In this document: in pieces, positions 4,801-55,543 of the stretch | Numbering within the stretch: the stretch's first letter is position 1 | Layout: the number at the start of each line of letters is the position of its first letter | NCBI GenBank assembly: GCA_973895155.1 | Contig: OZ316893.1 | Coordinates: 26,710,798-26,774,797, forward strand | Reading direction: 5' to 3' | DNA from: Marsupella aquatica | Lineage: Eukaryota > Plantae > Marchantiophyta | DNA: 64,000 nt | The notes under the pieces: generated by a model | Database searches by the model: none | Seen by the model: the letters and a program-made list of their open reading frames with translations, nothing else | Told to the model about the DNA's origin: nothing | Program-made: the position numbers and the translations under genes

Positions 4801-7509
4801 TATTACTTGAATAAACATCGCGGTAATTAAGGGGTAAAATCACATGCTGAACATGGGTGCTTCGTCCATGTGGACCATATGAAATGTACTCAATTTCAAG
4901 CCTCGCTGCCTGCATGACCACACATACTCTATCAAATTCCTCTCACTGGAATACCACCTGAAGTAAGGATAAATGAATCTAGATTGTGTCTACAATGAAA
5001 CTGCCTAGTTATTCATGAATACCCACAACAAAATCAGGCACTCTGTGGCATTTCTACGAGCCAAGTCATCTCATATTTGGAAAGATGGTGGAGAAGGAAC
5101 TCTCCTGTCAACTGTCAACAGGGGAAGGAAATGAGCAACAAATTTAGCATGACTGCTAAACAGTCGGTTATGCCAAACTTCTTTGAACAAAAAAATGCAC
5201 GCTGTTGAACCAACGGTACCTGAAGCTCCGTGAGAGGTTTCCTGTCTTTGGATGAAATATCCACTGACACCTGAACTCACGGTAGAGGCAAACCACAAAC
5301 CTTATAATTAGTAACGACATAACGAGGATATGGGCACCTTGTTCAAGTGTAGTGTTGGACCTTTAAGATCTAGAATTCTTAAAATCTTTGCCTATAAACA
5401 GGGAGAGTGGTGCTAATTTAAACGAAATGTTGCATTTTTAGCCGTCTCTTCCAAGATCTAAGGCAGTCTGTCGACTACATGCTAGGATCTGGCCCATGCT
5501 AAAGACAAGGAACCCGCACGATGTGCTCGGGTTACGGTTTTGCTCACGAACTTGACTTAAAGCCATGACGAAGCAATAGCGCAGTCCTATTAAAGAGGAA
5601 CGGTTTCAACAATTTCTGATCTTTCTGATACCACCTTCTACCGAATGTTAAGTTGAATCATTCGTATAAACGAATTTTATCCAGCTGAAACAAAGTTAAA
5701 ACCTGCAATGTGATGTCTAGAATGGAAACCAGCATGAGGTATATCGAATTTTTGTTACAGGTGATGGGATACGGATGGCACCTCAATAGATGTACTTCCT
5801 CCGGCAGGGATAATATAAGCAGGCCAGTAACCATCTTTCCGAGGTAGCTGTTGCTCATCCGGATGACGAGGCAAAATCTGGCTAGAGACAAAATCTAGTT
5901 TAGATTTTAGAAAAATTCATGAAAGGAGGTTCTATAATCAGAGATACAGTGAGCCTTGGACAGAGGTAAACAAACCTGAACTGACGTATAGATCGAATTT
6001 AGAGAAATGCCTGCAAGCAATTGGATCTTCCCATGAACTTCTGGTACAAATATTTCAAACTTCCCAGAAATATTGTGAAACCTGCGCGAAGGACAGGTTT
6101 CACAGAGGAGATGCTATAAGCCCCTCCTGATACCGTGCAGATAATTTCGTACATCTAACAGATTGAAGTGGTTTTTCTTTAAACAGGTTATAAAGTCATT
6201 GGGGGAATTACTACTGCCACTTGGAAGCTGTTCACGTACAACATGTAGCTTGTAACAACTTGATGACGTTCAAATATTGTTACATGCAAAGACAATGATC
6301 ACTCTGCACCTAAACCAAGAAAAGGATAGTTCTGTTGACAGAAACTTACTCCATCTTTCCAATCAATTCATAATGATCCTCTTCTTGCAAGTTCCAGCTC
6401 CATTGTCCACGAGTTAATACCAACCCATCACCTGGTCTCTTCTGTACAGGTGCATGAAATGCAAACAACAATTCCAATATATCAGGGCCAAAATTTTCGG
6501 TGGCGGTGAACGTTATTGTGCATTTGTGCAGGGAAACCTAAATACTTTGGCGAGGAAGCAGTTCAACCAAATTTTACAAAATGACTCACGTTTAACGCTT
6601 GATGGAGGCTGCGACTAGCTAGTACGATCTCTGAATTCACGGTGAATAACAGTGGACTTATTATTACACCGTAAATTGGGGAAAGGACATCCACTGGAAG
6701 TGAATAGAAAACGAATACTGCAATGATCGGGTAGATACTGAATTCGTTTCATCAAAACATGTCCCATGCACCGGTTATGGAAATTATGTAAGTTAAGCAC
6801 AGTGTCAGACACCAGTACCGTCACTCGTTCTAAACCCCTAAACCCCTAAACTACCCTCAAGTCCCTTGCGTCCAACAAACAAAACAGAAGATGCTTGTGC
6901 CCAAAAAAATCAAATCTTCGGAATGAGCCGCAAAACAGACAGAAATTTCGATGTGAGTCACACACTTTTCATGGTGAAGATGTGAAACGAATTTGTTCAA
7001 AACCAGATGAAATTGACGAAATGACTCAAACTACAAGGTGAAAATGTGAAGTGCCCCACAAAACAAACAGAATTGACGAAATGACCCCAAACATTACGGC
7101 ACTCTGTCAAACAATCATTTGCGGCCTAGGTGAATCGGCAGACAGGGAGAAAAATTACCTGGACGGATAACAGACGCTCCAGCTCTTGGGACAGCCACAG
7201 AGAATTCTCTTTCCCGTATGTGCAGCCTCCAACAGCTGCTGCTACAAATGCTACACCTGCTCCACCTCCCGTTCCAGCTCCAGCTCCTGCTCCAGCTCCC
7301 GACGTCTGCTTGGCATCACGGGGAAGTGGTACTACTAATGGACGAGCAGAGAATTTTCTGCCAAGGAGCAGGGGCAAAGAAGTGCTGCCCAGGCCGTTTT
7401 GATTGTGCAAAGCCGGGAAGGCTTTGGAGTGCAGCGCAAACACAGTTGCTGCATTGTTAGTGGAGAGCATTGTGACACAGATGTTCGTCAACATGACATG
7501 AGAGAACAT
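1803..7509 (-). CDS. Spliced gene (~16 exons) for a coenzyme F420-0:L-glutamate ligase (CofE)-like protein of the cyanobacterial type, with a probable plastid transit peptide
   Basis: Manually spliced GT-AG exons (approx. 7159-7509, 6590-6630, 6350-6441, 5976-6081, 5782-5877, 4788-4909, 4471-4557, 4267-4337, 3555-3658, 3349-3413, 3220-3266, 3027-3092, 2695-2737, 2372-2427, 1999-2056, 1803-1879) give ...[14 protein letters not shown]...[21 protein letters not shown]...[50 protein letters not shown]...[20 protein letters not shown]...[32 protein letters not shown]...[22 protein letters not shown]...[18 protein letters not shown]...*. I recognise these motifs from cyanobacterial F420-ligase-family proteins. 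The first exon is Ser/Ala/Leu-rich and acid-poor. The start codon (7470/7494/7509) and one or two small exons at 5.3-5.7 kb and 6.6-7.2 kb are uncertain. Confidence 0.85.
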
Positions 7510-7865: not shown

Positions 7866-8000
7866 TGGGAGTTATGGTCTAGAGATGGGACTTATGATCT
7901 AGAGATGGGAGTTATGATCTAGAGACTTCACTCTAGTCTAGAGATGGGACTTATGTCTAGAGATGGGAGTTATGGTCTAGAGACTTAGCTCTAGACCTAA
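7866..8000. repeat. Short tandem repeat, ~20-21 bp unit (gggaSttatgRtctagagat)
   Basis: About 5 imperfect copies. The flanks (tgtccatactcatttaaaa ... ctctagacYtaRRcccttaaaa) recur at ~25725-25805, so this belongs to a dispersed repeat. Confidence 0.75.
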
Positions 8001-8771
8001 GCCCTTAAAAGTAGACTTCAATTAGCACTATCATAGTAAAATTACAGTTTTGGGGGGGTAGAATAGAAGACCAGTTGATTTGCATATCTAAAGGAGCCCA
8101 ATGCTTGTGCTTCGCCCAATTAGCTACAGTAGCGGAAAGCAGCGTGACACATGGATGGTGAGGCTAGGTGGAGGGGGGAGGGCAATGAGGGTAGGATTAC
8201 AAAGAAAGTAAGATGGGATAGGATGTCCATCCAAACCTTTGAATAGAATGAGATCCCAAAAAAATTTCGTATGCAAGTAAAATTACTTTATTGTAAACTA
8301 GCGCCAATGTCCATTTTATGAATGTTAAATGAAATGATAACAAAAACCATCATGCATGTCATTTAACATACATCATTCTTCACATCTTCTTTTGGTGTGC
8401 CTTAATTTGGTGGGCCCTAGAGTCAGAGTCTTTTGAGCTTCACTCTACAAGCCTAGACCCCAACTCTAGTTTCCCCTTGCGCTTTATAAGTAATATTTAT
8501 ATCATCTTAATAAAAATATATATATTTTTAGATCTCATGTTTTCACTCTAGAAGCTATCGTGACATATAGTATCGTAGCCATAGTGTATCAAAAATATAC
8601 AAGTCACCAGCAATGCATATGTGCAAGCTGCTAGCAACCAACATGCATAGAAAAAGTCCAATCACATTCCCAAGTGCCAAGAAAAAGCAAATGAAGTGGT
8701 ATGTACGTAGTGGAGGTGTAAACCTCTGTATCCCCCCCCAGACCACAGCCAAAAGGAGGGCTGAAGAAAAT

Positions 8772-10757
8772 TCAGGTAGCACGTGGAGCACAGGAAGGGC
8801 AAAACCATAACCCTTCTGGCACCTGGGTAAGTTCAGGCCGAAGGCAGAAAAGATGGTACCCTCCATTGCAATTGTCACACAGCAGCATCTGGTCAGCATC
8901 ATCAATTCGCAAACACACCTTGCAAGGGTAGTCCACAGGTGGAATCCAAGTAGAAGTCACAATGGTGGGATCTAGGTTAGGCAGATGACAAGGGGCGCAA
9001 TTCTTAGCATTGTCAGCAATTGTGCGCCCATCTGCCCCTTGTAACTCTAGCACTCCAGACGGTCGAATAGCTTTAACCCTGAGAATTGTACGATTGGTTG
9101 AGGTGTCCAGGGTGTCGTTAGCTTGCTGTTGTAAGTACACGAAATCTCCCACATCAAACTTCCTGACCTTGGGCTGAAAAGTGCCCCCTCGTGTGTGGGC
9201 ATAACGCAGTGTGTCCCTGTGCTGTGCAATGGCCAAATTCTCCATGGCCATGGGCATAACTCTCCTGAATAGGGCAGCCCTCTCAGAGATCACATTAGAC
9301 CAAGTCACAGCTGAATCCAAGTCCACTACCTGAAGCATGTGAGCAGCAATAGCAGAAGGTGGAACTGGGTGACGACCAAACAACAAGAAGTAGGGAGAAA
9401 AGTTAGACAGTGATGCATGTCTGGACATCCTATACCCCATGGCAATGTAGGGTAAGGCCAGGTCCCAATCCTCCTTGTTTTTGGTGAGGCAGATCTTCCG
9501 GAGGCCCTTCTTGCATGTCTGAACCATGCGCTCTGCCAAGCCATCTGCTTGTGGGTGATCTCGTGATGTCCGACGATGATCAATGAGGGCCTGATCAAGC
9601 AGCTCCTGGAACTCTCCTCTAAACTCTGAGCCCTGGTCAGTGAGACATTCTGCACAAGCTCCAAAGCGGCTGAGAACTTGTTGCAGGAATGCCTGGCTGG
9701 TGCTACGGGAGGTCTTATCTGGCAATGCCACAAGTTCTATCCACTTGGAGAAATGCTCTATCATGATCATGATGTAAAGATTACCCCGAGACGTGAGGGG
9801 TAATTCTCCAGCCAAATCACATGACCAGCGATAAAACATGCCCTGAATAGGGAGTGGATGAAGTGTGGGTTGCTGAGATGTGAAGGAAGTCCTCACCCTA
9901 TCACACTGTTCACACCGGGCAATAACATCTCGAACTTGGCCATGCATGCCTCTCCAATGATAATGAGGGACCAAGAGGCTGTAAGTCCTCTTAACACCAA
10001 AATGACCAAGCTCAGAATGTATCTTACGGATAAGGCCAACCCTCTCATGAATAGGTGGAACCACCACTTCCCTGTCTGGCAAGCAGCACACGAGATGATC
10101 TCCCTTCCACAAGTAGCGCTTGGACCTTTGCTGAATTCGGTCTCTCTGGGCAGCAGTAACATGTGTGGGGTACTCCCCATGCTGCAGAAATCTCAGAGTG
10201 TCACTGTCCTCCCATATGTCCACCACAGGTTGGTCAACAACATAGCATGGCAGCAAAGCAAGATAGGTCGATGCATGAAATGTAGGCAGGATGGAAACCT
10301 GGTCAAAATCTTGCCGTGCATCTGAGGAATCATCAGAGGTAATCAAAGGGCTGCGGGACATAGTGTCAGCATTCTGATGTGTCACACCAGGCCTATGAAT
10401 TACCTCAAAATCATACTCCTGGAGTATGAGCGCCCAACGAGTAAGCTTGTCGTTGGTCATCAACCACTTCAAGGGCTGGTGGTCGGTATAGAGAACAAAT
10501 CTGGTCCCATAGAGGTAGGGCCTATAATGTATGACACCCCACACAACAGCAAGGCATTCACCCTCATAAGAAGAATAATGACTCTTTGCCTGATTGTTGC
10601 TCCTGGATGCATAGGCAATGACGTACTCTTTACCTTCCTCATCATGCTGGCCCAGAATGGCACCAATCCCAAGGGCACTCCAATTTGTGTGTAGCACAAA
10701 GACCTTGTTGAAATCAGGTCTTCTCAGCACCGGGTATTCTGAGAGCTTCTCCTTCAA
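8772..10757 (-). CDS. RNase H - integrase (HHCC zinc finger, DDE core) - C-terminal PHD finger; open ORF segment of the polyprotein
   Basis: RNase H: LHT(N)WS, VIAYASR, YEGECLAVVW, LYTDHQPL, NADTMSR. Integrase: HSELGHFG..CEQC, WSCDLAG, LTDQGSEF, GLAERMVQ. PHD C4HC3: CKVC..MLLCDNCNGGYHLFCLRPELTQVPEGLWFCPSC (~8787-8924). Confidence 0.95.
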   Translation of the reverse strand: MKEKLSEYPVLRRPDFNKVFVLHTNWSALGIGAILGQHDEEGKEYVIAYASRSNNQAKSHYSSYEGECLAVVWGVIHYRPYLYGTRFVLYTDHQPLKWLMTNDKLTRWALILQEYDFEVIHRPGVTHQNADTMSRSPLITSDDSSDARQDFDQVSILPTFHASTYLALLPCYVVDQPVVDIWEDSDTLRFLQHGEYPTHVTAAQRDRIQQRSKRYLWKGDHLVCCLPDREVVVPPIHERVGLIRKIHSELGHFGVKRTYSLLVPHYHWRGMHGQVRDVIARCEQCDRVRTSFTSQQPTLHPLPIQGMFYRWSCDLAGELPLTSRGNLYIMIMIEHFSKWIELVALPDKTSRSTSQAFLQQVLSRFGACAECLTDQGSEFRGEFQELLDQALIDHRRTSRDHPQADGLAERMVQTCKKGLRKICLTKNKEDWDLALPYIAMGYRMSRHASLSNFSPYFLLFGRHPVPPSAIAAHMLQVVDLDSAVTWSNVISERAALFRRVMPMAMENLAIAQHRDTLRYAHTRGGTFQPKVRKFDVGDFVYLQQQANDTLDTSTNRTILRVKAIRPSGVLELQGADGRTIADNAKNCAPCHLPNLDPTIVTSTWIPPVDYPCKVCLRIDDADQMLLCDNCNGGYHLFCLRPELTQVPEGLWFCPSCAPRAT

Positions 10758-10785
10758 AGTGGCAAATGTTGCCTCAGCATCTGTA

Positions 10786-11760
10786 CTATGTCCAAGTCAC
10801 ATTCGTTTTCAACAAAGCATACAATGGGTGTGCAATGGTACTGAAATCTTTGATGTAGATCCGGTAGTAATTGCACAACCCAATAAAACTCCTCAAAGTG
10901 TGAACATCGGTAGGAGTGGGCATTTCCAAGATGGATACCACCTTGGCCCAGTGAGCCATGGTTCCATTTGGAAGAATGCGGTGCCCAAGGTATACTACTG
11001 ATCTGACAGCAAATTCACACTTCTTGGGGTGTATCTTTAGGTTCACCTTCTTAAGCCTCATGAATAGCTCCTCAAGGTCAAGTAGATGCTGGTCAAATCC
11101 TTTGCTGTGGACCAACACATCATCAATGTAGCATTTCAGAAACTCAGCACCTTGAAGAACCTGGTCCATGACTCTTTGAAAGAATATGGGCGCATTCTTC
11201 AAGCCAAATGGCATCACCAACCACTCCCATAGTTGGTTACTACGATGAAAAGTTGTTTTCTTGCGGTCCTTTGCAAGCAGCAAAATCTGGTTAAAGCCTT
11301 GCCTTAGATCCACAAGAGTGAAGATGTCTGAGTCTCCAATGCTGTCAAATAGCTCCTCTGGCCGTGGCATAGGGTACCTGTCCTAGGGTGTGACCAGGTT
11401 CAATGGCCTGTAGTCCCCACACATGCGCTTCTCTGTCCACAATCCACCGGAATCCTTCTTTGCTGGCATCACTGTAGCTGCTGCAAAATCTGATGTAGAT
11501 GGCTGAATAAGACCAGCTTCATAGAGCTCTTGGCATCTCTCATCCACCAGCTGCCACTCATGCTTACTCAAACGGTGTCTCCGCCTGAAAATAGGTGTTT
11601 CATCAGCCAACTCAATGGAGAACTGCATAGTCTTGCACTTACCCAAGTCCTTCATAGAGAAAGCAAACACATTCTCATGCTTGAGGAGCAAATTCAACAA
11701 CTGGTCCTTCTGTCTTTTACTCAGGTGGTTGCCCATGATGAATGTGTAGTTGGCAACACT
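10786..11760 (-). pseudogene. Reverse transcriptase (Ty3/Gypsy type)
   Basis: KRMCGDYRPLNLVTP*DRYPMP, FTLVDLRQGFNQI, VMPFGLKNAP, YIDDVLV, KCEF, YLGH and LRSFIGLCNYYR. There is an in-frame TAG at 11383 and a frameshift at ~10790. Confidence 0.95.
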
Positions 11761-12064
11761 AGGAATAGGACCTGATGTACTCGTGCTTGAAGAGCCAGAA
11801 GTGTCAGCCTCTCCACTGTCCAAGCTGCTAGCTTGCTACTGATAAGGTGATGAGGCCTCTCTAAGGCTTTCTGTATCTGTTGCTCTGGTCTGATCCACAC
11901 CATGAAACTGAGAATAATGTCAGCCACATTACAAGGGACCTCCTCCCCCCCAACACTTGGACTAAAGTGGTGAGTGTTGGACAGAGGTAAGTGCACCTGG
12001 TCTGGATGCCATGTAGCAGCACCATGGAGTGGTAGGGCTGGAACTCCTGATGCTGGATGAATGT

Positions 12065-13030
12065 ACATCTGAAAAAGGATGCAAGTGACCAGAAGCCAAG
12101 TGAGAGCATTAAGATCCATTACCCTGCCAAGTAAAGCATTCCTGGCCAGCCTGGTGATTTTGGTGTGACCTGTAGTACCGGGTTGGAAGCCCATAGCCCG
12201 TTCTCTCTCCTTAGGACTAGGTTCATCCCATGTACCGGTAGAATGTCGATAAACCAGGCCAGGACCATCACCCTGAAAAGCATGTGCACCTGGAAAGGAC
12301 ACAAATGTAGGCCAAGCAGCACGAGGTTGTCCAATGGTATTGGCTGGATACCAAGGTGCTGGCTCTTGCCGTGTAACTGGTTGGCAAGAACTGTCAGGAT
12401 CCAAAATCTGGTCCACTGTGAGGTTAGTGTCCCTGGATGTGTGGTGAAGAGCTAACTCCAACAAGGAAGGTGGTGCAAGGTTAGTCCTTGAAAAGTTACG
12501 AAGACGATGTGCATAAGAACCAGAGTGCACTGCATCAATGAGAAGGGGTGGTCCCAAGTAGTGCTGGACCACACTGAAATCCTCTTTGACCTATGGACGC
12601 TGGTCAAACTGAGATGGAGTATTCTCAATGAGATAACCAACAGCAGGATAAAGGGATTGAGCCCAGGTGAGAATCTGAACCAATGCTGTGAAAAGGCCAG
12701 AACGAGAATCATGCAGTCCACCACCATGACCAGCAGCTGAAAACCCTTGGCCCAACCAGCTATGATCAAATCAAGGGAGCCAAGAAGGGTTAAGTGTCGG
12801 TGCTGGACAAGCTGGATATCTGGAGGAAAGAAAGAAAATGCAGATTTCCATGCATTGTGTGGAAACTGTTGGGGAAATCGCTCTGAAAATTCCAGCAGAC
12901 GGGATTCAGCCACTTGCCTTGCACCTGGATCAATATTCACATAGATGTACTGCTTCACCACCATGCCAGACTGTAGGAGAGCTTCCAGGCCTGTAGAAAT
13001 GCCACCAAAAAGCTCAAGCAATGTAAGGCC
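12065..13030 (-). pseudogene. C5 cytosine DNA methyltransferase domain, DNMT3-like, inside the retroelement polyprotein
   Basis: Motif I LLELFGGISTGLEAL. Motif II YVNID. Motif IV DLIIAGW/[x]CQGFSAAG, frameshifted at ~12750. Motif V GLHDSRSGLF. Motif VI YLIENT. Motif VIII AHRLRNF. Motif IX ERERAMGFQPGTT. Motif X ITRLARNALLGRVMD. The order is unpermuted I-X. There is an extra stop at ~12591. Confidence 0.88.
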
Positions 13031-13329
13031 ATCTGAAGGAGGAGTCCATGTAACGGGTGCGCTCAAGATTGGGGCTATTGGTTGGCCATTGTGCTGCCCA
13101 AGATCCTCAAATTTGCGCAATGCAGCCACCAAAGGTCCATGGGCTGCTTGGAGCCATTGTACCACCTCTGGTTGATGATCCACGTTGCTGGAAAGTGCTG
13201 CTATACGTGCAGTAGCATGTGCAGTAGCCACCTCATCATCATCCTCCTCAATCCAATCCTGCAATGGGTGGTTGACATAGGTAGCTATGTGCACTGCTTT
13301 CAACACACAGTGGTGAGCCATAGGTGTAT

Positions 13330-13720
13330 GGGCACCATGCAAATCAAGTGGAATGTAGCCCAAGTGTGAGCCATCCGTATGCCAATCAACTCTGTAATAT
13401 GCATGCTCATGCCAATTGTCAATGGTAAAACCTGGTGGGAACAAAGCCTCCTGGTCAATGAGCACATCATACGTAGTGGCATTGGTAACCAAACATCTGA
13501 CTGGGAAATGCAATTCCTGATCTGTACCTCCATTAAAAGTGAGAGTGAGTAAAGTAGAACTCTCATCCAGCACATCCTCCACAGTGCCACTAGCAGTCCG
13601 AATATGCCACCTGGATTGCTGTAAATGATCAGTCAGCAGTCTCATCTTCTTGGCAAACTGAATGCCCAATATCACTGGTTGAGCGTCTGTGTCCAGCATG
13701 ACCACCTGAGGAGTGTGACC
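13330..13720 (-). pseudogene. Retropepsin-like aspartic protease domain
   Basis: VMLDTDAQPVI (DTG motif mutated to DTD), IRTASG and YDVLIDQ (ILG-like motif). Confidence 0.75.
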
Positions 13721-14889
13721 CTCCAACTTGACCGCTGAATTCCTGTTGTCAACAATGGCAATGGTGGTGGAAACTGAAGTCCTGTCGCTAGGCACCACTT
13801 TTGGCAAATGATGAGGTACCTTGTGAAGGGAGTTAGTATCCACGGTCTTTCCACTCAACAGCATAGTCAGGAAAGATGGAGCAACATGACCAGAATCCAG
13901 TGTAGCTCTGGTCACACAATCTACAGCAATACTGTCATCTCTACCACTGGAAATTGGTACTGGGATAGCCAAACCAGTGGAAGCATGTAATGGAGAAGAA
14001 GAAGATCCAGTATGTACATGAGATTGGATCTCCAAAACCGGTGTCACAGGGGCTGATGAAGAATGGAGTGAGCCCTCTAGCGCTCTGATGATAGCTCTAG
14101 CATCCAGCTGTAAATTATGGCAGCTGAAAAGTGGAGTGGTAAGAATCCTTCGTGTCATACCGAAGGTGAAATGCTCAAGCAGCTCAGGAGAAACAACTCC
14201 TTGTGAAATGTCAGCAGCACTTGGTGGTGGAATGGATGTAGCTGCAGCTCCCTCCCCCCTCGCCAACAAGGTGCACTCTTCAGCAAGGGTAAGTGGCTGA
14301 AAAGATTGGGGCATGACAGCCCGAGCTCCCCTGGCTCTAGTCATAGGACCAGCAGCAAGACCATCAGCCTCTACAATGCGGCGTGTGGGAGCAATACGGG
14401 AGGCAGCACTGGCCTGCTGGTAAGCAAAATAGGAAGGGCAGAATGAATCTGAAAAGTTTGCTGTAAGGCCAGGCTGTGGAGTAGAGGACAGCACACACTC
14501 ACCCATATGAGCATCAAATGGCAAGCCATAGAAAGAGCGGGGTAGAGGTGCTGAACTGTCAGTGGTGCCTGGGCCAAGGATGGGTTGCACGTGACCAGCC
14601 GGTTGAGAAGGACCAGCAGAGGCAGTTGACTTGCCTTTGATGTTGGCAAGTTGGGCACGTAGGGACTCAACCTCATGAGTCAGAGACTGGAGTGGAGTTG
14701 CCTGGGCGTTGTGAGTCTCCTTTGGAGCTGGTTGCTTCTGTTGCTGCTTGGGCGGTTTGTTAGCACTGGGTGCTTTGCCACTAGAAGGAGGAGCAACTGA
14801 TGCAGTAGGAGCCCTCCTAGCTGGTGGGGGAGTGGAAGCAGGAGTAGGATGAGGGGCCTGCTGTTGTAGCTGTTTCCGCTCTGGGAATT

Positions 14890-15934
14890 TGGCAAAATAA
14901 ACGGCCTCCAAGTGACCCACTTTCCCGCAGAAATCACAAGATAGGTCCTCAGCCACAATATCACATGCATTAGCCTTGTGATTGGGGTTACCATAGTAGT
15001 TGCAAGATGGCAGCATGAAAGCAGCATGTGTTGGCTTGGTCTTGGAACCATACTATGGTACACGGAAAGGAGTGGCCAGTGTAGGGGCAGCAACCTGGTA
15101 CATGGATCGCGATGGACGTGCAATACTGGCCTCATAATGTGCATGGGCCAACTCAAGTTTCTCAGTAGTGTCATAGACATTGAGCAGGGTGTAGCTGTCT
15201 CCAAACTCTGAGAATACTTGTTGCAACACTTGCGAATGGAGAGCTGGTGTGCCCTCCAATGCGCGAAGATAGCGATGAGCAGCTTCCAGGTCAGTGATGC
15301 TTTGGGTGTCCTCCTTCAGCTTGAGAAGCCGACGATACATCATCTTCAAGGTTTCATCGCGCTGCCTCACAAAGGTGGCCAATTGCATGATTTTGTCAGC
15401 ACTCTTGATGGGGAATTCCAATTCAAGAACCTGGAAAAACTCAGCCACTGGATCAGCAAAGGCAGGAGAATCAATGGTGGGAGAAATGCCTGATGTAGCC
15501 TGTGCCAAGATAGTGGGAGTAACTGGTGCAGTGGTGGGAACTGGAGTAGGAGGGGAAGTGGCAGGAGCAGCAGCATGGGCTGCAATGGCATTCTGTAATG
15601 CCAATTGTGAGGCAGCCGCAATTGCAGTGGCATAGGCAGGGTTAGGCAATTGTGTGATAGCAAGCAACCGTTGAGAGTGCTGCTCATACACATCCAAAGC
15701 CTCGTGGTGCACATACCTGGCTAGCTGCTTAAATGCAAAAGCATTTGTGAAATTGCTGTCGTACTTCAACTCCAATTCGTAAACGACAGTGTAGAAAGTG
15801 GATTTGAACTCACGCAAAGAAACAGTGCCTGGCCGCCCACTGAAGCGTTCAATGCGGCCAGATGAGTGGCTAGCATCCATGCTGTAAGTCGGTGAAGCTG
15901 GAACAACCACTGATGTAGAAGGGGTAAATGGCAA
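14890..15934 (-). pseudogene. Gag region with two degenerate CCHC zinc knuckles
   Basis: ORF 15053-15934 is in frame with ORF 12452-15016 across a single TAG. The knuckles CNY(Y)GNPNHKANAC and CDFCGKVGHLEAV(Y) each show a C>Y change. The Gag call rests on position and the knuckles. Confidence 0.7.
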
Positions 15935-16599
15935 GGAAGTGATAGCAGGCTTCGGGTTAGTGGTAAAGCGACCGCCAAATTGAGCAGAAGGATTGCTTGG
16001 TGTGGGTGCTGTTGTTTGCGGACGTCATCGAAATTGCCGAGACTCCAATGAAATTGGCACCAATGGTCGTGGATCACTCCGTAAATGGTACCTGGGTGTC
16101 GGTGGTGATGTGCTGCTACCTCCTGGCTCGTCGGCTGACATGTTGCATGCTCACCCGGGGTGCCAATGGGAAAGAAATTGACAAGAAAAAGAATGGCAGC
16201 CCCAAGGCTAAGAAATAAAACCCACAAAGGAAACAAACGGTGCGAGGCAGAAATGTGTCGAATGTGTAAACACACAGAAAAACCGTCGGCAAAGAAAGGA
16301 TCCTTAAAAACTCCGGAAAGGCCTAATGTTGGTAGCAATAAAGAAATCCGGGAAAAGAAAATAGAAGTGGCCCCCCTTTAAGTCTATGCATCGGGCCCTT
16401 GTGGACCCAGAAACTGGCAGCCGGCCGGCCGATTGTGTAAACACACTCTGGGCCCGACGCCCTATGCACAGGCAGCCTGTGGAGGCCCTATGCAGGTCAT
16501 TGTGAGGCGGAAGAAAAGACGACTGCTGAAAAGAAAAGAGAGGCGGATTACGAGGCGGAACGGAGGCGAGGCAAAAGAAACCGGGCCAAACCGGGCCCT

Positions 16600-17110
16600 C
16601 TTAATGGCATGAGCCCTCCCATAGGGCTTTGTGCCCCACCTTAAGAGCTTCCGAAGGGAAGCTACGAGCTCCCCCTCCCCTCCTTAATGAAATTGGGCCT
16701 CGTGCCCTGGTGACAGTATTCCCGAAGGGAAGGGAGTCGAGTGTACTCCCCCTCCTCCCTTTAATTCACCATAGGGCCTCGTGCCCTCCTTGCGCTTCAA
16801 CTCCCCCTCCTCCTTGCTGTCACTTATGCTTGCTTGCCCTCCCCCTACTTTAATGTTGCTTAGGGCCTCGTGCCCTCTCCTGGCACTCTCGCTCCCCCTT
16901 TAATGCTGCTGAAAGTGGGCTCTGTGCCCTGCAGGACGACTCCCGAGAGAGGGAGTGGAATGTACTCCCCCTCCCCCTCTACTTTAAAGTTGCCGATGGC
17001 CTCGTGCCCTCCTTTCACTTCCCCTCCCCTCCGCGTGCTTGGCAAGACTCCCGAGGGGAGTCGATTTGAACTCCCCTCCCTCTTTAATTCTGCATAGGCC
17101 TCTGTGCCTT
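16600..17110 (-). repeat. Array of ~7 degenerate units in the retroelement 5' leader, each with a C-rich tract, TTAAT and an AGGGC-N5-GCCCT stem-loop
   Basis: ttaat...gggcctcgtgccct or close variants at ~16601, 16685, 16761, 16850, 16900, 16984 and 17084. Several units also contain GGGAGT..ACTCCC hairpins. Confidence 0.7.
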
Positions 17111-20100
17111 CTCCTCTTGGCTCCCGGCTTGTGCTCGCTGCCCCTCCAAAGAGTCGTTAAAACATAAGGCGAAGGGAAAGAAAATGAGGGGAAGAAACGG
17201 GCGCGCGGCCCTATGCACTCGGAAGGTATGGCTGAGGCAGCCGGAGGTGATCGTGCGGTAGTCGAGGCAGCGGGGAGGTGGTCGCGCTACGGCCGAGGCA
17301 GGATGGCAGCCGTGGCCGGCAAAAGAAACACCCAAAAAAATGGCCCGAAAAAGGGTCGTGGCAGGCGTTGAAGCAGCAGTTGGCAGCGGCCGGAAACGGA
17401 AAACCCTGAAAGCATAGCGCGAAGGAAAAGAGTGAGGGGGGAGGACCTGTTTGACTTAAGTGTATATACTTAAGTGTATACACAAAAGCCATAACTTCCA
17501 CCCCATTGCTCAACGTTTTTCCATAGAAATTGCACCGGCATCAGCGGAAAAGCGTCAACTGTCTCGAGCAATTGAGAAGCACAGCGTCTTCGATCTTCTT
17601 CCCTTCACCGCTAACCCGGCGACAAAGTTCTTCTTGAATAAAAGGCGTGATAGAAACAAGTGTACTGAAATCGAATTGAAAACCGGCGGGATGCCAAGAT
17701 CGGTCGGGAGCATCTAACGAATCACTGTGTGAATCCCGTGTACGGAACTGACGAGCACTGTCTGAGCTCTGTCGATAGCGATTCAAGAAGAACTGAAAAA
17801 CCGACAAAGAAAGACATGCCCTAAGTAGATCAAGTCAAGGCGTCACACTAACAAACACGTTTTGCTTCAAGAACGGTCCAGACTTACTACAAGAACATGA
17901 CACTAACTCAAGTAGTACACTAGCCCTAACTACATACCTAGCGGGCATGTGAGGACATGTCGATGTGCACAAGCGGCACTGTCCCTCGGCATGACAAAGC
18001 CTAGATCCCAACTCTAGCTTCCCTTTGCCCTTTATAAGTAATATTTATGTCATCTTAGTAAAATGTATATATTTTTAGATCTCATGTAAAGATTAGGGAT
18101 CTTATTTAACCAAAGGTTTGGGATGGAGATCCCATGTGAGCTGATACTCACAATGGTTTAGAGGAAAAAGTAAACAAAACAAGGTTATTTGTGGATGGGA
18201 ATCAAGGGGAGAATAGAAGCCAGTCCAGGAGTGATGCTAAACAACAGATCACCTGGTACTTTTTTTAACAGTCCAGGTTGGTCCATGCCATCAAAACAAA
18301 CTTAGGTACTCAACCCAATAAAACACATTTTTCATGTGAGAGCGGCTTCCCAAGTGGTTTACAGGTATGAGGATTACCTACACTAGGTGGGTTCAGTAGG
18401 GTGTATCAATATTCCCGTAACCAAAGTGTTACGACTTTTATTTTCTGGACATACCACCTTTATGGGGTACTTATTTTGGTAGTCCATAAGGATTATGTCC
18501 TGGTCGTAAGAATATTTTATGTCCCTAGCCGTAACTCAGTTATAGCTGTGCTTTGACATGCCCTAGTGACTCAAAAACCAACTTGGCATTACACGTCAGT
18601 GTAAAACGCCTATCTCTTCATAGGAGGCCACATGAGCAAGTAAGGAGAAAAGATGACTATCCAGTTCCTCTGTACCAAAGCAAAGGCAATTTGACCTCAT
18701 AGACTCCCTCTCAAAGTGGGCCCTGCCAATGTATCCACCAACATAATCATTGAAATTGTAACCACACAAGGAGTTGCAGGCATCTTGTGCATTGTTTGCG
18801 ATGAATCAGCAGCAAACCACTTTTATGGTCGTTGCTTCGCAGCTTGGGGACATAAACCTCTCATGATTTATCAGCGCTCCTAGTAGCAATCAACCAATGT
18901 GGCAGCAACTTTCAATTGTCGCACGTTCTGTGTGGATGGCATCGACTAGTTATGCCTAAAACATCAGTGTCAAGTGGTCATTCCAGAATGCATTGCTGGA
19001 AGCAAGTAATGGCCCTCGAGTAATGGCCCTCGAGTCACGTTGATACAATTATATCGCTTTTCAACTATAGTAGGTGCCCACTACAAACACATCTACCGTA
19101 AATAAAATCAACACTCCCAAGTCTGAAACCATGGCACTAACATGGCTCTTCCTTAAACCCTAAACCCCAAACCCTTTTCCCAACCAAGGCCCAGCACCAG
19201 CATCCACAGCTCTATTTGGAGAATGGACAAGGAGTAGTTATTTGTAACATCATCAGGAGTGTATGGGCATGGAAATCACCTCTCCTTGATTTTGTCTTCA
19301 AAAATATTTTTGTTCACAAACAGAATTCTAAGTACTTTTAGATCCTAGGAATTGAGATCCTAGGAATTGCTACTAGTTGATAGTTGCATTCAAAATCTCC
19401 AAACTTGATGTGGAAAGTACTTGCATTTGATCTTCGTTGTAGACTTTCAAAACTTTTTGTAATTTTTTAATTGCATGTAAGTCATTTGGTGACTTACAAA
19501 AGGATATCACTGAAGTTTTACAGTGAATGCCATTGGATGTCACCCGACATTTACAAAGAATGTTTGTGAGCGGTGTCCAAACTTGTTATATAGGGAACTT
19601 TCAAGAGACCCTCAACCATTTGATAAAAGACACCCTTCAAAAGTGCCCAAGTCTAATGCACATTATATGTTTTTGGTCCAAAGCTTCTATTTATTTGGAA
19701 ATCTTATAAAACACCAGTTGAGCTAGAAATTTGTCAGGATGATCTTTGAAGGATAATCTACTTGTTGGCAAAGTTTTAGACTTGTTGGAGTTGGTTTACT
19801 TGGTTTTTGATCAGGTCTATGTTACTTTATTGTTATATTTGCATTTAATTATATCAAGTTTTAATTAGTTCTACTTTGTTTTACATATTAGTTTTCTTTG
19901 GAGTATGAGGAGGTATGTCTTTTCATCTTTCCAAGGATGTCCTTAATATTTATTTTAGTTAGTTTTTGGTTTTTAAGGAGTGAAAAGTTACACCTTTTCA
20001 TTCCTTATTGGACCATCCTTGTTTGAGGCATTATATAAGGAAGGGTGATACACTCGTCAGGTAAATTAGTTCTTGCATATCTTAGCCAAAGAGGTTTTCC

Positions 20101-38400: not shown

Positions 38401-41400
38401 TGTCCACAATCCACTCATTGCCTCCACTTTCAGACAACGAACCTGTCATATTCCAGAAGCCAGGCAACGACTGCTGCAGACATCGCTTTTTCTGTTCGCT
38501 AAGGTTTACTCTTATATCCATAAGAAAGCTGCATGGCACACCACAGAAGCAGGGAAGGAATGCTGTTGGGAAACGGAACTAAGTTGCATATAAAGTACAG
38601 GGCTCAGGACGAGGTTCCATTCAGGTTCTCGAGAAGAGATCGGGGCCGTTTACCTAAAACCGTGGCCAAACGTTTATCTTGTTTTGCTTGGCTCACCTGG
38701 AAAGACGGTAGCCCTAGATTGTGGAAAAGTTCAATTGCGCCTAAGTCAGTCATCTGCCTACAACAGGGTTAGCGTTAGGTTTTATCCTCATGTTTTAGCT
38801 TCAAAGTGAATTGGACGAGGGTAATTTTGCTGCTCCTGGATGTTAAAGAAGCTCGAACTCTGCTTGGGAATGTTTTCGAGTGTATTGAATTACACGTCAT
38901 TTTCTGGCTTTACTGAGCTTAAGGAGACGTGCGTCTGAATATGTGCTGCAACTTGAAGGAGTGTGCTTTGATGTTTGTTCATGAGTGTTTTTGACAAACT
39001 CTATTGATGTGGCTTTTGCTTGCAGGCTTACGTTTTTTTGAAGAAATTCCTGATGGCTTTCCGTCTCAGGTAATCATTTTGTAGGTTTGTATATAATCTT
39101 TAGTTTAAGAGTCTGCAGAGTGCTCAAGTTACCTAATATTAATTACGACCAATGGGTACCTTGTCGTAGCAGGTCACTAGGAGAGTGGTGCGTTACAAAG
39201 AAATGACGGTTTGCCTGACCGATGAAAAGGTTGTTGCCTAATAAGGGATTACTTAGCAAGAATTATCTAACAGGGGTGATGGTTAAGGAATAAGTGTCTG
39301 AAAGATCCCTGACAACAAAGTGAATTACAATGCAAAACAAGATGAGTAGTCGACGGGAGGTTTCTGTGCTAGTATAGCAGTCGGCCGCTAGAGGTTGACT
39401 CTACCACGATGTAGAAAATAAACCAGGTAGAATCAGGTCAACCGCTGGGGAGACAGATTATAACAAATACAGGATGCCAAATGTATGCGAAAGAACATTC
39501 AGAGGGTCTTCCCAATCTGACATATGTTTCTATTCTAGTTGCACCCTATGTCGTGCAAGTGTAGCTTGGAATGAATTGTTACGAAAGGGACAAGATATCA
39601 TTTGCTGGGGCACTCTGTTGCAGAAGTCGCTCTTAATTCTCCACAAGTTATGCTATTTGCATGCTAGGTCAAATCTCTTAGTCGTGCCATTCGTCCGGAA
39701 TGACTTTGTCAAACGTTTTACTTATTGAAAACTGTATCGGTGGGTCACAGAGCCGGTACAAGGCATGGAAAGCAATTGGAGTAGTGGAAGCGTCATGTGC
39801 AGACATCTTCGAACTGGTGATGGGCATGGATGAGACTCGCTATGAGTATGTCTTTTCTCAAATGTTTCGCTCTTGCGATGATTTTGTCTTACGATGCTTG
39901 CAAAAAAATTGAAGGACCACTGAAAGTTTTGTCCAAAATTGGGACGATTTTTTAATTTTCACCTAGTTCTCCAACGCTGAGTCGCTGATATTCTCCCGTT
40001 GACCTGGAGTTGGTTAATTGGTTTTTGAACGGCAGGAAAAATGCCTCCCGTATATTTTGAATGTCACTATTATAGATTTTATCTGTTCATTACCCGAAAA
40101 GTACAGAAGGAGTCAAGCTGTCGTATTTATTCGAAGCGCAGTTCGAGCCCATCTAGGCAGTAATTATTCGAAGGCGCAGTTCGAGCCCAGTATTAACGGC
40201 TCTCCTTAGTGGCATTTGTCAAGCTGGCCTCTCAGACGTATCACTGACACTACGTGGGGAACTAACGACTTTGAAATCTTATGATAACGTTGCAGATGGG
40301 ATGCCAGCTTTCATCATGGGAGTCTGGTTGAGACAGTTGATGGACACACTGCTATCTTGTACCACCGACTGGAATTAGATTGGTTTCCTACGTAAGATTT
40401 ACTTATTCCATTATGCCTGCTTTTAACCTCGAAGGTGCCACCCAAGTTCATGGCCGTTCACATTTCAAGGATGCTCCATGAAATCTTTGTTGAGCTCTAC
40501 TGTCCTCGGGCGACGGAAAAATAATTCGCAAGCCCTCTTTTTGTTTGTGGGAGTTGCAAGACTATCGAAAAGGATGGCACGGTTTACCCTTGGCTTTCTG
40601 ATGCTCGTAGACTTGAGCCAGATCATAGTTCTTCTCATTAGAGAGAATGAATTCATGAATTGTATAGTTCACGATTCCTGGGGAGATGGGACAGAACGTA
40701 CAAGGCAGCAGTATGCCAAAACAAAAGTGGTCGAGTACAGTTCAAGGACTGAAGACTATAGTTCATTTCTGGGCCGAAATGGTGCTCTTGTGTGGTAGTT
40801 GAGGCAAATTTAGTAAAATAATTGTGACTGGTCACTAGGAGAGCAATCCGTACTGAATCTGGATAGGTAATATAGACATCTTTCTGGAATTTTGTGCAAT
40901 GCGTGTGCTGATCTTATAGTAGGTATGTTTTGAAATGTTTTATTCGTTGACTGCTCGTTGAGACATGGTATTGCATCTGATAGGGGTCATTTGCTATCCT
41001 GTGAAGGTTTATATGGCCTCGTGATCTTTGCTACACTCGGTATTGGCGGCGCAATGATGACGGTAGCTATGGTACGCGATAATGTTTAGATGAGTCTGTC
41101 CCTTCATCGTGGAAATTGTCGTTATATGAATGCTGTTAATTGCAGGTTAAGTTCCAGAGTCCTGTCAAAGAATTTCGATTTTGATCATCTCGAGAAATCT
41201 TCGAGTTCCACAAAACCAGATTTTCTTTGATGGGTCGCAAAGATCAGAGTTTGGTTCTCGTCCAAGCGTAGCTTAAGGGACATTTTAAAATAATTTTCCT
41301 GTCTTTTCTGGCTGCAGTAATACTCTTTCGTTCCAAGGAGCATCCAAGTTGTCCTGAGCAGCCTGGTTGTGTTCGGGCTCACTTAGAAAGTATGTTCTGT

Positions 41401-44400
41401 ATTCTTTATTTGAGTTATCATGCAAACCAGAACATAGCACTGCGCAAGTCTGAAAACTTTTCTGGGTCACTGATTAAGCTTCAATTCAGAAGGTTGCAGC
41501 AGACCTTATTTGATGCGGGGATTTTGTCTACCATGTTAGGCCTTCGTATCCAGGTTTTTCCAGGTGAAAAAGCCTGTGCAATGTTTTAGCTTTTCACATT
41601 CCTTCCTCTTGGCTTATGTAGGTGGGGGTTATCAAATTTCCCCTCTTGAACCCCGTGCTGGAGGGGAGCTGCCCAGAGCTCGAGTGCAGCAGACAGTGGA
41701 AATTGATCTGAAGGGCTGGGGTGTTGGTGTTCTTCCTTTCTGCCATCAACACACTGTAATCCAAATGCTGAATAGTGTTGCTGGTAATTGCCCTACCCGA
41801 AGAGTTTTTATGTGCTTCATGCTGCAATGCTCCCATTTCCTAAGTTGGATTTCGGGCATTGTGGAGGGATTCACTGAAGATGTAATGTTGGAAATCTCGA
41901 TATGCAACTGAAACAATTTCAAATTTTTTAGTTTCATTCTGAGGATCTTTGAAATTATCTGCCTAGCTTGTTAATATAGAAAGCTGGAGTTTGTTTCCGC
42001 TTTCATCCCAGAGTATACTTGGGAGTCTCTTATATGTGGTGGAGGAAAAAGAGCTCATCTGAATTGAAAGGGATTTGTAGCAAGACATGGATTTATTTTA
42101 TTTTAGGAAGCAATTGCCATGACTTACAGGTCGAGACTTTGTGTAAGAAATATCGGGTCCACTTTTTGCTACATTTGGAAGGCATTTCTGCATTTATATT
42201 TATCACTCTTGTTCTAAAATGGGAATGTTCATTTTGGGACTAGGGTCTCTCATATTTGTCTTGGTTTAGATGACCAATGAGAGAGAATCATAGGGAGTGA
42301 ATGCTACGGAAATATGGTTCTGAAGCTTTTTGCTCCTTGAACCTGCACAGGACTTCGAGAGTGGTTTGCAGAAGGCCAGCCCATTCCAACCCAAAGAATC
42401 GTCCAAATGAACACTGAATTAGCTGAAGCCAGGAAGGAGAGGAAACTTTCTCTCATTATTGATAAGAGCCCATCTATTGATGCTATACAGTATGAAGACT
42501 CTGAAGATGAGGATGACTATGGGACTCCCCATGTGTCAGAAGACAATGAGAATCATGATGTATGTTTCTTTCCATTGCATGCTTCTGCATCTTTGGTTGC
42601 TCAGGTTTTCCTTTTATGATCATGTTACTTTTGGTGAAGACTGGTGACGTAAACCATAATTTGCTGAAAACAAAGAAGGTTTCATTATTAATTACTTCGA
42701 AATAAATTTATGTTCAGACTAGACCAGAGTTTCACAGGTATTTTTTGTCCCTGGCCTGTTGCAGCTTGTCGTGTGTTCTCCGCCATACAAGGAGAAATTT
42801 GCGCCAGGTGGGTTTGGCATGCTCATTCTGACGAACATCAACGTGTTTTGTCCTATCATTCAATATTGTTTGTGATATATTTGTGGAGAGTAAGAAAAGT
42901 TGATTATCTTGAAAACTTCCAACTAATTACTTTCCTTGCAGTTAGTCCTGCTGACGAGGAGCCTGCAGAACCTTTCGACTTGTCAATATTTTCTGGTACA
43001 TTAAAACGTGGTGATGTCGATATTGGTCGGAATTGCTGGAGCATTCCGAGTGGCCATCTTTTCAGAGTCCGTAGCAAGCGCTTCCTTGTCGACAGATCAA
43101 AGGTAATTTCAATTCAACTTCGCGGGGATCTTCCGTGCAGCTTAGATGTATGAAAGTGTAAATCATATTTCTGCTAGCAGTCTTGACATCTCAAGGTTGG
43201 ACAAGGGCTTGACTTCATCCCGCTTAGCAGAGATCTGGTCAGGACTGTAAAAGTCCTCTCTAATTTGTTCATCATATTTTAAAAATTATCTGAACGAAAA
43301 TGCAGTGTCCAGCTGGAGATCCTCTGCTTGAGCTTGTCACAGTTGATTGGTTTAAAGATACTAAGCGTATGGACCACCTAGCACGTCGGAAAGGCTGTGC
43401 TGTCCAGGTGACTATTCCAAAGCTTTTGTTTATTTTCATGTCAAAGGTGATATGGTTCGTGGCAATGTGCTTAAGATTATGTTCTCATGAGCACGACTTG
43501 CAGAGTTCGCGAGTTTTTTCCCGATAGTTGGTTTTGACTCGTTTACCAAACTCTGGAAAATGTGGTGTTTGGAAATTACAGGTTGCAGCAGAAAAAGGTC
43601 ACTTTACGATTGCTTTCAACATGCAGGTACCTGCATTCTCGACTTGCCTGTAAATCTGACGATGTTATATTGCCGAAGCCTGCTCGCCTTATGCTAATGT
43701 ATAACAATCACCAGCCACTGACAGAGCTATCTTCACTGTATATACCAATAATTTCTTGATATTTGTCAATTGACGCAGGTCCCAGGATCTACACATTACA
43801 GCATGGTTTTCTACTTTGTGGCAAGGAAGCCTATACCTGAAGGATCTCTGTTAAGTAGGTTTATTGACGGAGATGACAGTTACCGCAATTGTCGCCTGAA
43901 GCTTATCCCCTCGGTCCCAAAGGTCTGTATCTATCTTCATTTATTATTTTCTCAGGAATGTCGATTTTATTGTACGAAATTCCTGTTCGTCCACTATATA
44001 TTTATGAATATTGTTATGTCATCTGCAGGGATCATGGATAGTAAGACAGAGTGTGGGCAGCACTCCTTGCATCCTCGGGAAGGCTGTTGATTGCACATAT
44101 TACCGTGGTTCAAATTATCTTGAGGTACATGTTTGATTGTGTGTATGATAGCATAGTATGAATCTAGTATAAGATCCTGATCCAACCCAGGGAAGTGTGT
44201 CAATGCAGCAAGCGAACTCATATTTTTGCATTAATTTTCACCTACATTAAGATTGTCGCCATATGTTCAGTTGTAGTTCTCGGTCGTCTGCACAAATCCT
44301 TAATGAGTATATGGTCTATCATTATTCCAAGCTCATAGTAAGAAACTGAAAAAACGTTGATTTGTGATGAGAATATTTTTGGCTGAGAGGAGAAGACCAT

Positions 44401-45344: not shown

Positions 45345-45590
45345 GGTCCTGAGGGTTGGCATGCCCTGTTGTACTATCCTTTTAGGATAGGACGGAAGTG
45401 GGACCTATCCTCTACTCAGTCTAGAATGCCACTACCTGATCGGATCCATCTTCGAAGTTGGAGTCTGAAAACTCGAGAGTACCTTATTGGGATATCAGAC
45501 CAGTGAGTGGGGATTCAACCCGCGCACATTTTTTACTTGGCATCTTCCAGTCAGCCATTTCACCTTGGAACCTTCCGAGCTGTGATATAT
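45345..45590 (+). repeat. Left arm of a long inverted repeat (partners at 57775-57945 and 58390-58450)
   Basis: 45425-45590 is the diverged reverse complement of 57775-57945. The ORF track shows the matching peptides FQGEMADWKMPSKKC and FQGKMADWKIPSKKC on opposite strands. 45348-45400 matches the reverse complement of 58390-58450. Confidence 0.8.
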
Positions 45591-47500: not shown

Positions 47501-47703
47501 TGATTAAACATGTTGAGATGAGCAAAAGATATTGAGATGAGCAAAACATGTCCATGAGAGAAAAAATGTTTAAGCGAGGCACAAATGTCAAGGTCATAAA
47601 ATATGTCATGGGATATGGAAAGCATGATGAAAATGAAATACATGCGCAAAATACAAATTATATGAAGACATTGATACCATACTCATGCCAACTTTATTCA
47701 CGT

Positions 47704-55444: not shown

Positions 55445-55543
55445 CTTTTGAATATTGTTTGCTAGTGAGGTGTATATACCAAATTCTGGTGACTCACATC
55501 CTTTTGATACACTATGGCTACGATAAGTCTATATGTCACAACA
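55445..55543 (+). mobile_element. Relic 3' terminus of an element related to the 8556-17996 retroelement
   Basis: ttgctag..ctggtgact..ttttgatacactatggctacgata..ctatatgtcacaaca aligns with the reverse complement of 8556-8640 (ttgctag..ctggtgact..ttttgatacactatggctacgatactatatgtcacgata). Similarity stops exactly at the TSD-defined end. Confidence 0.8.

Follow-up and report, generated by a model that had tools for sequence, protein, structure and literature searches.

A decayed Ty3/Gypsy element of the liverwort Marsupella aquatica belongs to an abundant family with a conserved DNMT3-like domain in its polyprotein and split terminal repeats

What might a retrotransposon do with a cytosine methyltransferase of its own, and how might it integrate when it has an integrase but no pair of long terminal repeats (LTRs)? 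These questions are raised by a 64,000-nucleotide stretch of the genome of the liverwort Marsupella aquatica (contig OZ316893.1, positions 26,710,798 to 26,774,797; hereafter the window), in which a Ty3/Gypsy element runs on the minus strand from 17996 (5' TGTCATG) to 8556 (3' CACGATA, where relatives have CACGACA). A first-pass annotation made from the letters alone had placed the element at 8556..17996 and a DNA methyltransferase (DNMT) between its protease and reverse transcriptase (RT); the coordinates proved exact, with both ends and a 4-bp target-site duplication (TSD) confirmed. We propose, with about even confidence in the reading as a whole, that the element is one dead member of an abundant Ty3/Gypsy family that encodes one Gag-Pol polyprotein with a conserved DNMT3-like domain, which likely methylates the element's own new complementary DNA (cDNA), and that the family likely integrates from end-joined cDNA.

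Three-frame translation of the minus strand combined with Pfam searches gave the polyprotein order Gag-protease-DNMT-RT-RNase H-integrase-PHD. The order protease-RT-RNase H-integrase, the Ty3-like RT, and the TG...CA-type ends (TG...TA in the window) with a 4-bp TSD are those of Ty3/Gypsy elements. The methyltransferase occupies 12075..13048 (minus strand, as do all features of the element), and its motifs I to X lie in unpermuted order between the protease motif LDTDAQ (starting at 13696) and the RT motif YIDDV (11130), starting at 13021 (LLELFGGISTG), 12766 (IIAGW), 12749 (QGFSAAG), 12635 (YLIENT), 12512 (AHRLRNF), 12209 (ERERAMGF) and 12152 (RLARNALLGR). A profile that drew only on 121 distant relatives with another domain architecture, described below, matched this region alone in the 64-kb window, in three pieces with E values of 7e-55, 6e-28 and 2e-11, in agreement with the annotated element type and domain position. 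The annotated motif set stands only in part: its order is present, but the catalytic Cys that had been written into it is missing from the sequence, in which a motif IV frameshift near 12750 deletes the codons matching the Glu-Cys of relatives, followed by a stop at 12591-3. Because this frameshift splits the one part of the domain that Pfam recognises, the window's own DNMT pieces gave no match to PF00145, which had been suggested as a check, whereas unbroken relatives exceeded the cut-off.

The predicted fold is DNMT3-like. On an AlphaFold2 model of the DNMT domain of relative P0002 (predicted local distance difference test, pLDDT, 70), Foldseek put DNMT3B/3C/3A on top (E 5e-13), and VIA-align placed DNMT3 first (Z 19.8, root-mean-square deviation 3.4, 270 aligned), followed by M.MpeI (17.7) and M.HhaI (15.8), with DRM2 covering only half of the model (residues 1-136). 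Sequence profiles likewise ranked DNMT3A (E 2e-21) above DRM (4e-13) and bacterial enzymes (M.HaeIII 4e-9), and the circular permutation of motifs that defines DRM enzymes is absent, as had been noted from the motifs alone. The domain is thus best described as DNMT3-like by similarity ranking rather than by tree placement among DNMT families.

To describe the family, we scanned half of one metagenome collection, which returned 578 matching stretches; the best 80 of these represent 66 distinct insertions, Sphagnum-like by protein identity. The catalytic Cys and the Glu of motif VI were present in 154/154 family domains, the motif VIII Args in 153/154 and 150/154, and the Gly that binds S-adenosylmethionine (SAM) in 142/142, and the Cys was found in all 66 distinct loci, so that the family carries the Cys, Glu, Arg and SAM-binding residues of a C5-cytosine methyltransferase even though the Cys is gone from the window copy. 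Ratios of nonsynonymous to synonymous substitution (dN/dS) between the window and the loci were 0.14 for DNMT, 0.14 for Gag, 0.10 for protease, 0.06 for RT and 0.06 for integrase, rough values given that dS to the window is saturated (~2). Among decayed loci the ratios were 0.39 for DNMT, 0.35 for RT and 0.62 for the linker. The DNMT was in frame with the protease in 35/58 loci and with RT in 36/51 decayed loci, at a fixed modal spacing, and the continuous polyproteins P0001, P0003 and P0255 exist; a single polyprotein that includes the domain, as first supposed, is therefore supported. Neither DUF3444, PWWP nor ADD domains were found in the relatives scanned. These results indicate that the DNMT is a family trait under purifying selection in a high-copy Ty3/Gypsy family, and the circumstances that the first-pass annotation had listed as counting against such a trait (no profile match, copies lacking the domain, a consensus without the Cys or without purifying selection) do not hold at family level, where the Cys is kept in every domain and dN/dS is about 0.14.

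Protein searches identified named relatives in the liverwort Calypogeia fissa, in three Sphagnum species and in Closterium, the closest being C. fissa proteins 68% and 63% identical to the window; no named protein of Klebsormidium nitens was among the matches. A profile search returned 492 clusters at 50% identity with E <=1e-30, the best 150 of which were examined. Four public sequencing runs hold the window's own family, with coverage of the element far deeper than that of its flanks. In run X3, contigs inside the element had a depth of 1207-1334, compared to 19-20 for contigs matching the flanks exactly, and unique contigs matched the flanks and spanned the 5' junction without differences; this corresponds to roughly 60-70 similar copies, an estimate from depth, which is not the same as copy number.

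The DNMT occupies one of two positions in Pol. Among 229 proteins, 48 were of type A, with the domain after the protease or before RT as in the window, 120 were of type B, with the domain between RNase H and integrase, and 61 were too short to assign. All named type A proteins come from streptophytes, while the sole named type B protein comes from the chlorophyte Scenedesmus sp. PABB004; the type B group (P0004, P0043, P0241 and 117 more) likewise carries the PHD finger. In a tree of 155 DNMT domains, which omitted short domains and most unclassified ones and contained neither reference DNMTs nor an outgroup, type A was split from type B with supports of 0.97 and 0.86. In an RT tree of 79 proteins with both domains, type A formed a clade (0.999) nested in type B under midpoint rooting, and the two trees gave the same internal order for 11 type A proteins. 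The split and the congruence of the trees would fit a single DNMT capture followed by a shift within Pol; two captures from related donors are a possible alternative, neither tree having an outgroup. Exact peptide patterns, which detect close relatives only, found no bacterial or viral donor in genome or viral contig collections, and the Atlas feature score of phage DNMT clusters (0.96) was level with that of a Streptophyta cluster and is not evidence of transfer. In six relatives (P0005, P0039-P0041 and P0044, P0144) the open reading frame (ORF) stops 80-130 aa past the DNMT, and these may have Gag-protease-DNMT as a first ORF and RT in a second.

The first-pass annotation had mentioned neither the split repeats that stand in place of an LTR pair, nor the self-priming signal, nor the PHD finger. 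The window element has no terminal direct repeat, and hence no LTR pair. Its ends are instead formed by two different sequences, whose boundaries were set by joints in the run contigs: repeat A (359 bp, 17638..17996), which opens with the TG integrase end TGTCATG, and repeat B (176 bp, 8556..8731), which directly follows a G8 polypurine tract (PPT; 8732..8739), the predicted plus-strand primer, and ends in a CA-type integrase end (here CACGATA). The TSD (AAGC on the plus strand) occupies 8552..8555 and 17997..18000. Whereas the window copy is arranged as A-coding-B, relatives show A-coding-B-(2 nt)-A|B. Run contigs joined 17638 to 8731 (A|B) in 4/4 runs, and joined 8556 to 17996 through two extra bases (B-nn-A) in run X1, with loose ends in X2. 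Among 32 loci with room at the 3' end, 17 ended in B-A-B, one in B-A plus a partial B, and 14 in B alone; after removal of duplicates (n=24) the counts were 13, 1 and 10. The 5' end was A alone in 30/30 loci.

In relatives, B is preceded by a G-run (14/14 of those shown) and ends in CACGACA, followed by exactly 2 nt and then TGTCATG of the next A (18/18). The A|B joint was more variable, being exact in 7/14 insertions and having lost or gained bases in the other 7; three of the altered joints had a 2-nt loss at microhomology, one was ambiguous, and two had large deletions that possibly arose later. Among 13 insertions scored for TSDs, seven were exact, three had one mismatch, one had none and two were unscorable (10/11 of those scorable), relatives thus having 4-bp TSDs like the window's, in both the A-coding-B and the A-coding-B-A-B forms. 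The two A copies were closer to each other within an element than to those of any other element in 7/7 cases. We also observed, in locus L022, a repeat A in inverted orientation before gag (4898-5188), a B-A-B end of a second element in opposite orientation in locus L035 (9282-9967), and, at 55486-55542 of the window (plus strand), the 3' end of a repeat B of a related family in opposite orientation (85% over 54 bp, ending in CACAACA), possibly part of a solo A|B unit from near 54990.

Directly after A lies a predicted 12-nt primer-binding site (PBS; 17626..17637), which is complementary at 12/12 positions to 17783..17794 inside A, the predicted transcript start and self-primer. None of 2000 shuffles matched this 12/12 self-complement in the window, at least 10/12 positions were complementary in 25/27 relatives, and the self-primer site lies 31-32 nt after TATAAA in most of them. 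Between the window and locus L002, two of the 12 positions have changed on both sides with pairing kept, which is a compensatory pattern. Here and below, published systems are described from the covered parts of the papers cited. The first 11 nt of Tf1 RNA pair with its PBS (PMC7175516), self-priming has been predicted for moss Tcn1 elements (PMC6317226), and the signal described here is of this Tf1/Sushi-Tcn1 type, as a sequence prediction. No tRNA-type PBS was seen after A, where no comparison to a tRNA set was made, and the window contains no tRNA gene.

These features can be assembled into a mechanism. A TATA box would direct transcription from a start about 32 nt further on within A, and the RNA would extend into the second A; its first 12 nt would pair with the site after A, priming reverse transcription as in Tf1. 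In LTR reverse transcription the regenerated repeat spans PPT to PBS, so that here it would be B-nn-A, and plus-strand synthesis from the G-run would yield a cDNA B-nn-A-coding-B-nn-A, with B-nn-A at both ends. The ends of such a cDNA are not TG/CA and the integrase ends lie inside the repeat, which implies that the ends would first be joined into A|B. Integrase would then open the internal CA-nn-TG, dropping the 2-nt spacer and giving A-coding-B-nn-A|B; the proposed joint recalls the circle junctions of IS3-family transposons. Recombination between B copies, or an intermediate with one repeat, might give rise to copies of the form A-coding-B such as that in the window, which would be replication-incompetent. 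The self-priming match, the internal integrase ends 2 nt apart and the often imprecise A|B joint together suggest integration from end-joined cDNA, an intermediate that we consider somewhat probable on this sequence evidence.

The position of the methyltransferase in Pol suggests that protease would free it in the particle, where it would mark the cDNA. The PHD finger at the integrase C-terminus (8772..8924, PF00628 E 1e-11, with a natural stop TGA at 8772-8774) has its best PDB matches in the PHDs of WSTF, CHD4, ATXR5, Lid (KDM5 PHD1) and BAZ2B. Fingers of this kind mostly read unmethylated histone H3 tails, and the integrase PHD might do likewise, steering insertion away from active promoters. 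In animal DNMT3 the ADD domain is a reader of H3K4me0, and a PHD finger and a DNMT3 in one element would similarly pair DNMT3 with an H3K4me0 reader. A wider conjecture, in which we have rather less than even confidence, is that an old green-plant Ty3/Gypsy lineage, present in chlorophytes, Zygnematophyceae, mosses and liverworts, replicates in a way not so far described for retroelements with an integrase, in that it self-primes its reverse transcription, joins its cDNA ends and lets integrase open an attachment site inside U3, and that its own DNMT3 and H3-reading PHD finger let copies arrive pre-methylated in quiet chromatin, the DNMT having been captured once and moved within Pol.

Several observations weigh against the reading of a cDNA-methylating element that integrates from joined ends, and they concern both of its halves. 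In motif IV, the residue preceding the catalytic Cys, usually Pro, is Glu in 92/154 domains and Pro in 53/154, so that activity may be altered; in yeast the Klebsormidium enzyme was inactive, an outcome that its authors regard as inconclusive (PMC5890265); and the constraint on the DNMT, already a rough estimate at saturated dS, is weaker than that on RT or integrase. All loci were, in addition, retrieved by DNMT peptides, one of them containing the Cys motif, and DNMT-less copies and Cys mutants are therefore under-sampled. The negative yeast assay (PMC5890265) and the non-canonical Glu-Cys would suit a domain that is no DNA methylase in vivo but serves as a nucleic-acid-binding or scaffold module, for example at cDNA ends or at the internal attachment site, or that methylates RNA or an RNA-DNA hybrid, and the DNMT and the split repeats do co-occur in every locus where the two could be observed, although these loci were chosen by DNMT. 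The near invariance of the Cys, the Glu and both Args across sequences only 30-45% identical, together with a SAM-binding Gly never lost, makes such a role quite improbable in our judgment. Conservation and purifying selection suit any catalytic role, however, including that of an enzyme acting after integration or in trans, which might methylate the site of insertion, host loci or other copies, or dampen the element's own activity, rather than mark cDNA in the particle. De Mendoza et al. list this option (PMC5890265), and moss DNMT3b works on heterochromatin (PMC6453930); against it, presence in the polyprotein, at either of two positions, would couple the domain both to the dosage of Pol and to the particle, as expected of an enzyme acting on cDNA, and we regard this option as unlikely. 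The idea that a host DNMT3 fragment was captured only once or inserted as a nested piece, or that the assembly is chimeric, could appeal to the failure of the window's pieces to match PF00145, but is refuted by the size of the family in both the metagenome scan and the profile search, by constant spacing to protease and RT, by congruent trees and by the zero differences of the unique X3 contigs at flanks and 5' junction, leaving it a negligible probability.

For integration, the form A|B-nn-A-coding-B was seen at 0/30 5' ends, though a symmetric two-repeat circle should yield it, and a simple circle model thus needs an unexplained bias. Further points on the same side are that the B pair was closer within than between elements in 3/7 cases only, and that TATAAA is missing upstream of the predicted start in repeat A of the window copy. 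Copying as in PAT-type tyrosine-recombinase elements would account for the missing form: transcription would continue into the terminal B, the RNA itself would pass on the A|B joint, and both ends of a linear cDNA, then trimmed by integrase, would be rebuilt on the internal B-nn-A as template, with no joining of ends. The low count of closer B pairs and the exactness of half of the A|B joints agree with this route. Yet B-nn-A, bounded by the self-primer right after A and the G-run right before B, is a conventional PBS-to-PPT repeat. Its spacer is constant in length, whereas bases are missing or added at half of the A|B joints, in several cases at 2-nt microhomology. We consider PAT-like copying without end-joining a doubtful but credible alternative. 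Besides the PAT-like route, RT might jump asymmetrically from one end to the other; integration from end-joined cDNA is the reading that we prefer.

The element is not the first of its kind. De Mendoza et al. (2018, PMC5890265) described KnitGypsy-Dnmt3 from Klebsormidium nitens, with Gypsy domains, DIRS-like repeats, a Pol ORF that includes a Dnmt3, and purifying selection; they placed the acquisition in the K. nitens lineage. Our family shares with KnitGypsy-Dnmt3 the Gypsy domain set, the unpermuted Dnmt3-related DNMT in the Pol ORF, the DIRS-like A-coding-B-A-B repeats (17/32 3' ends of relatives, and the run joints), the conserved catalytic residues and purifying selection (Ka/Ks <0.2 there; 0.14 for DNMT against the 66 loci, with dS saturated). 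In every feature compared, the window family is a member of this published kind, matched to its description and not to K. nitens sequences. Relatives do occur in named land plants, but the first-pass annotation overstated the novelty, because elements of this kind are already published for Klebsormidium. The window family differs in its hosts, here land plants and Closterium, and in its high copy number; its PHD finger has no mention in the main text on KnitGypsy-Dnmt3, and the parts of that paper covered describe neither self-priming nor the 2-nt spacer, TSDs or a mechanism of integration (PMC5890265). The land-plant range, a sister architecture of chlorophyte type, the PHD finger, self-priming and the internal integrase site are thus additions to the published kind. 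'Streptophytes (Gypsy-DNMT3)' are named as already described in bioRxiv 10.64898/2026.05.21.726589, and PMC12344493 repeats the 2018 result under 'streptophytes'. Our literature search, which left most subscription papers, theses and Repbase outside its coverage, found no report of the element in bryophytes or chlorophytes, and none of 12-nt self-priming, internal integrase ends or an imprecise A|B joint for such elements; the covered parts of PMC9477723, PMC11982613, PMC11244446 and PMC6673714 report neither element nor mechanism.

Other systems share single traits with this family. Tf1/Sushi and the plant Tcn1 chromoviruses, the latter found in mosses and clubmosses, are Ty3/Gypsy elements that self-prime with the first 11-12 nt of their RNA (PMC7175516, PMC6317226), but they have ordinary LTR pairs and a chromodomain, where here the PHD finger is followed by the stop and no chromodomain is present. 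The terms 'PHD' and 'methyltransferase' do not occur in the covered parts of Neumann 2019. SymbioDIRS-Dnmt3 and PAT-type elements have A-coding-B-A-B repeats, and SymbioDIRS carries a Dnmt3 in Pol that methylates CG in yeast (PMC5890265); they rely, however, on a tyrosine recombinase, whereas our family has TG...CA ends, 4-bp TSDs and a DDE integrase: the six main ORFs gave matches to rve and H2C2 integrase domains and none to a tyrosine recombinase. Chlamydomonas Gypsy-7a_cRei and REM1 are further green-lineage Gypsy polyproteins with a PHD finger, but no DNMT is listed for Gypsy-7a_cRei in the parts covered, and its left and right LTRs differ by 8 bp (PMC9940879). EpiLTRs/DAM-LTRs similarly combine a methyltransferase and a chromatin reader in a Ty3 polyprotein, though their DNMT is sister to DNMT4 and is accompanied by DAM and a chromodomain (bioRxiv 10.64898/2026.05.21.726589). 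Host DNMT3 of non-flowering plants (PpDNMT3a/b, PMC6453930) and animal DNMT3A/B resemble the domain in fold and motif order, but identity to DNMT3A/B is ~20% and motif IV of the family reads W-E/P-C-Q.

The remaining domains of the window copy show how far it has decayed. The integrase (9400..10055) retains an H2C2 zinc finger and DDE core (PF17921, PF00665), and RNase H (10413..10715; PF17917 E 9e-34) has its first catalytic Asp changed to Asn by comparison with P0001. The RT (10790..11750; PF00078), with YIDD at 11130, a stop at 11383-5 and a frameshift near 10787, is 81% identical to that of P0001, whose best solved relative is Ty3 RT. The aspartic protease (13400..13735), with DTG changed to DTD, matched PF13975 weakly (E 0.012) and includes a stretch 68% identical to Calypogeia protein P0007, which is above the Pfam cut-off. 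The Gag-like region (14890..15880), with a degenerate zinc knuckle at 14938-14897 and a stop at 15053-5, gave no Pfam match in the window copy but aligned continuously to P0003 (58% over 1080 aa), and zf-CCHC was found in relatives. Upstream lies a 5' leader (16025..17637) with GC-rich degenerate repeats (16651-17115), poorly common to other copies: in each of the four runs, 16172-17627 was covered 10-100 times less deeply than other parts of the element, indicating that the leader is variable or absent in most copies. With frameshifts near 12750, 11912 and 10787, premature stops at 15053-5, 12591-3, 11836-8 and 11383-5, and altered catalytic residues in protease and RNase H, this is a dead element, its inactivation at the catalytic motif and by stops having been recognised at the outset. 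Contigs of the runs that hold the window's family differ by indels at all three frameshift positions, indicating that the breaks are specific to the window copy. The observed/expected (o/e) ratio of CpG was 0.2-0.5 in coding regions, 0.71 in the CpG-richer leader, and 1.0 in repeat A of the window against 0.56 in relatives; we rejected CpG depletion as a trace of self-methylation, host methylation explaining it equally well.

The element probably inserted into a host tandem duplicate, one copy of which lies at 8449..8540 (plus strand) and the second at 17997-18087 (91%), as judged from the shared lead-in TTCACTCTA and the 4-bp TSD; the 92-bp flanking repeat was accordingly ruled out as an LTR or long TSD. 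The insertion site (7866-8555 and 17997-18140) is in a high-copy host repeat with TCTAGAG-rich units and high depth at 8433-8490. This repeat, in which about 8210-8260 and 18090-18140 look alike by eye in inverted orientation, is likely a miniature inverted-repeat transposable element. Elsewhere in the window, exons of a plant EDR2-type gene lie at about 41270-44090 (plus strand; EDR2_C E 3.5e-12 at 43752-44087, weak START at 41272-41586), with the gene start probably near 33200. Together with the liverwort origin of the closest named protein, this gene fits a bryophyte host. A Helitron at 47704-52907 (minus strand) looks young, with an uninterrupted 1257-aa frame containing Helitron_like_N and a PIF1 helicase and a 473-aa frame before it; GC-rich repeats lie upstream (53500-54750) and a 37-bp tandem array at 46960-47533. 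A 128-bp inverted repeat pair (45466-45593 and 57772-57899, 86%) encloses the Helitron and the related B end.

These results widen the known range of methyltransferase-bearing Gypsy elements, so far a single alga, to include land plants, where copy number is high, and they indicate a chlorophyte sister group. This range and sister group argue for one old capture in green plants, as opposed to the lineage-specific event first proposed. Standard LTR finders likely miss such elements because they have no LTR pair, and an intronless DNMT ORF of this kind could be mistaken for a host DNMT3 gene. The split repeats offer a concrete, checkable model for DIRS-like ends on an element with an integrase. 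Mosses and liverworts provide DNA-methylation mutants and methylomes, so that the role of DNMTs carried by retrotransposons becomes testable.

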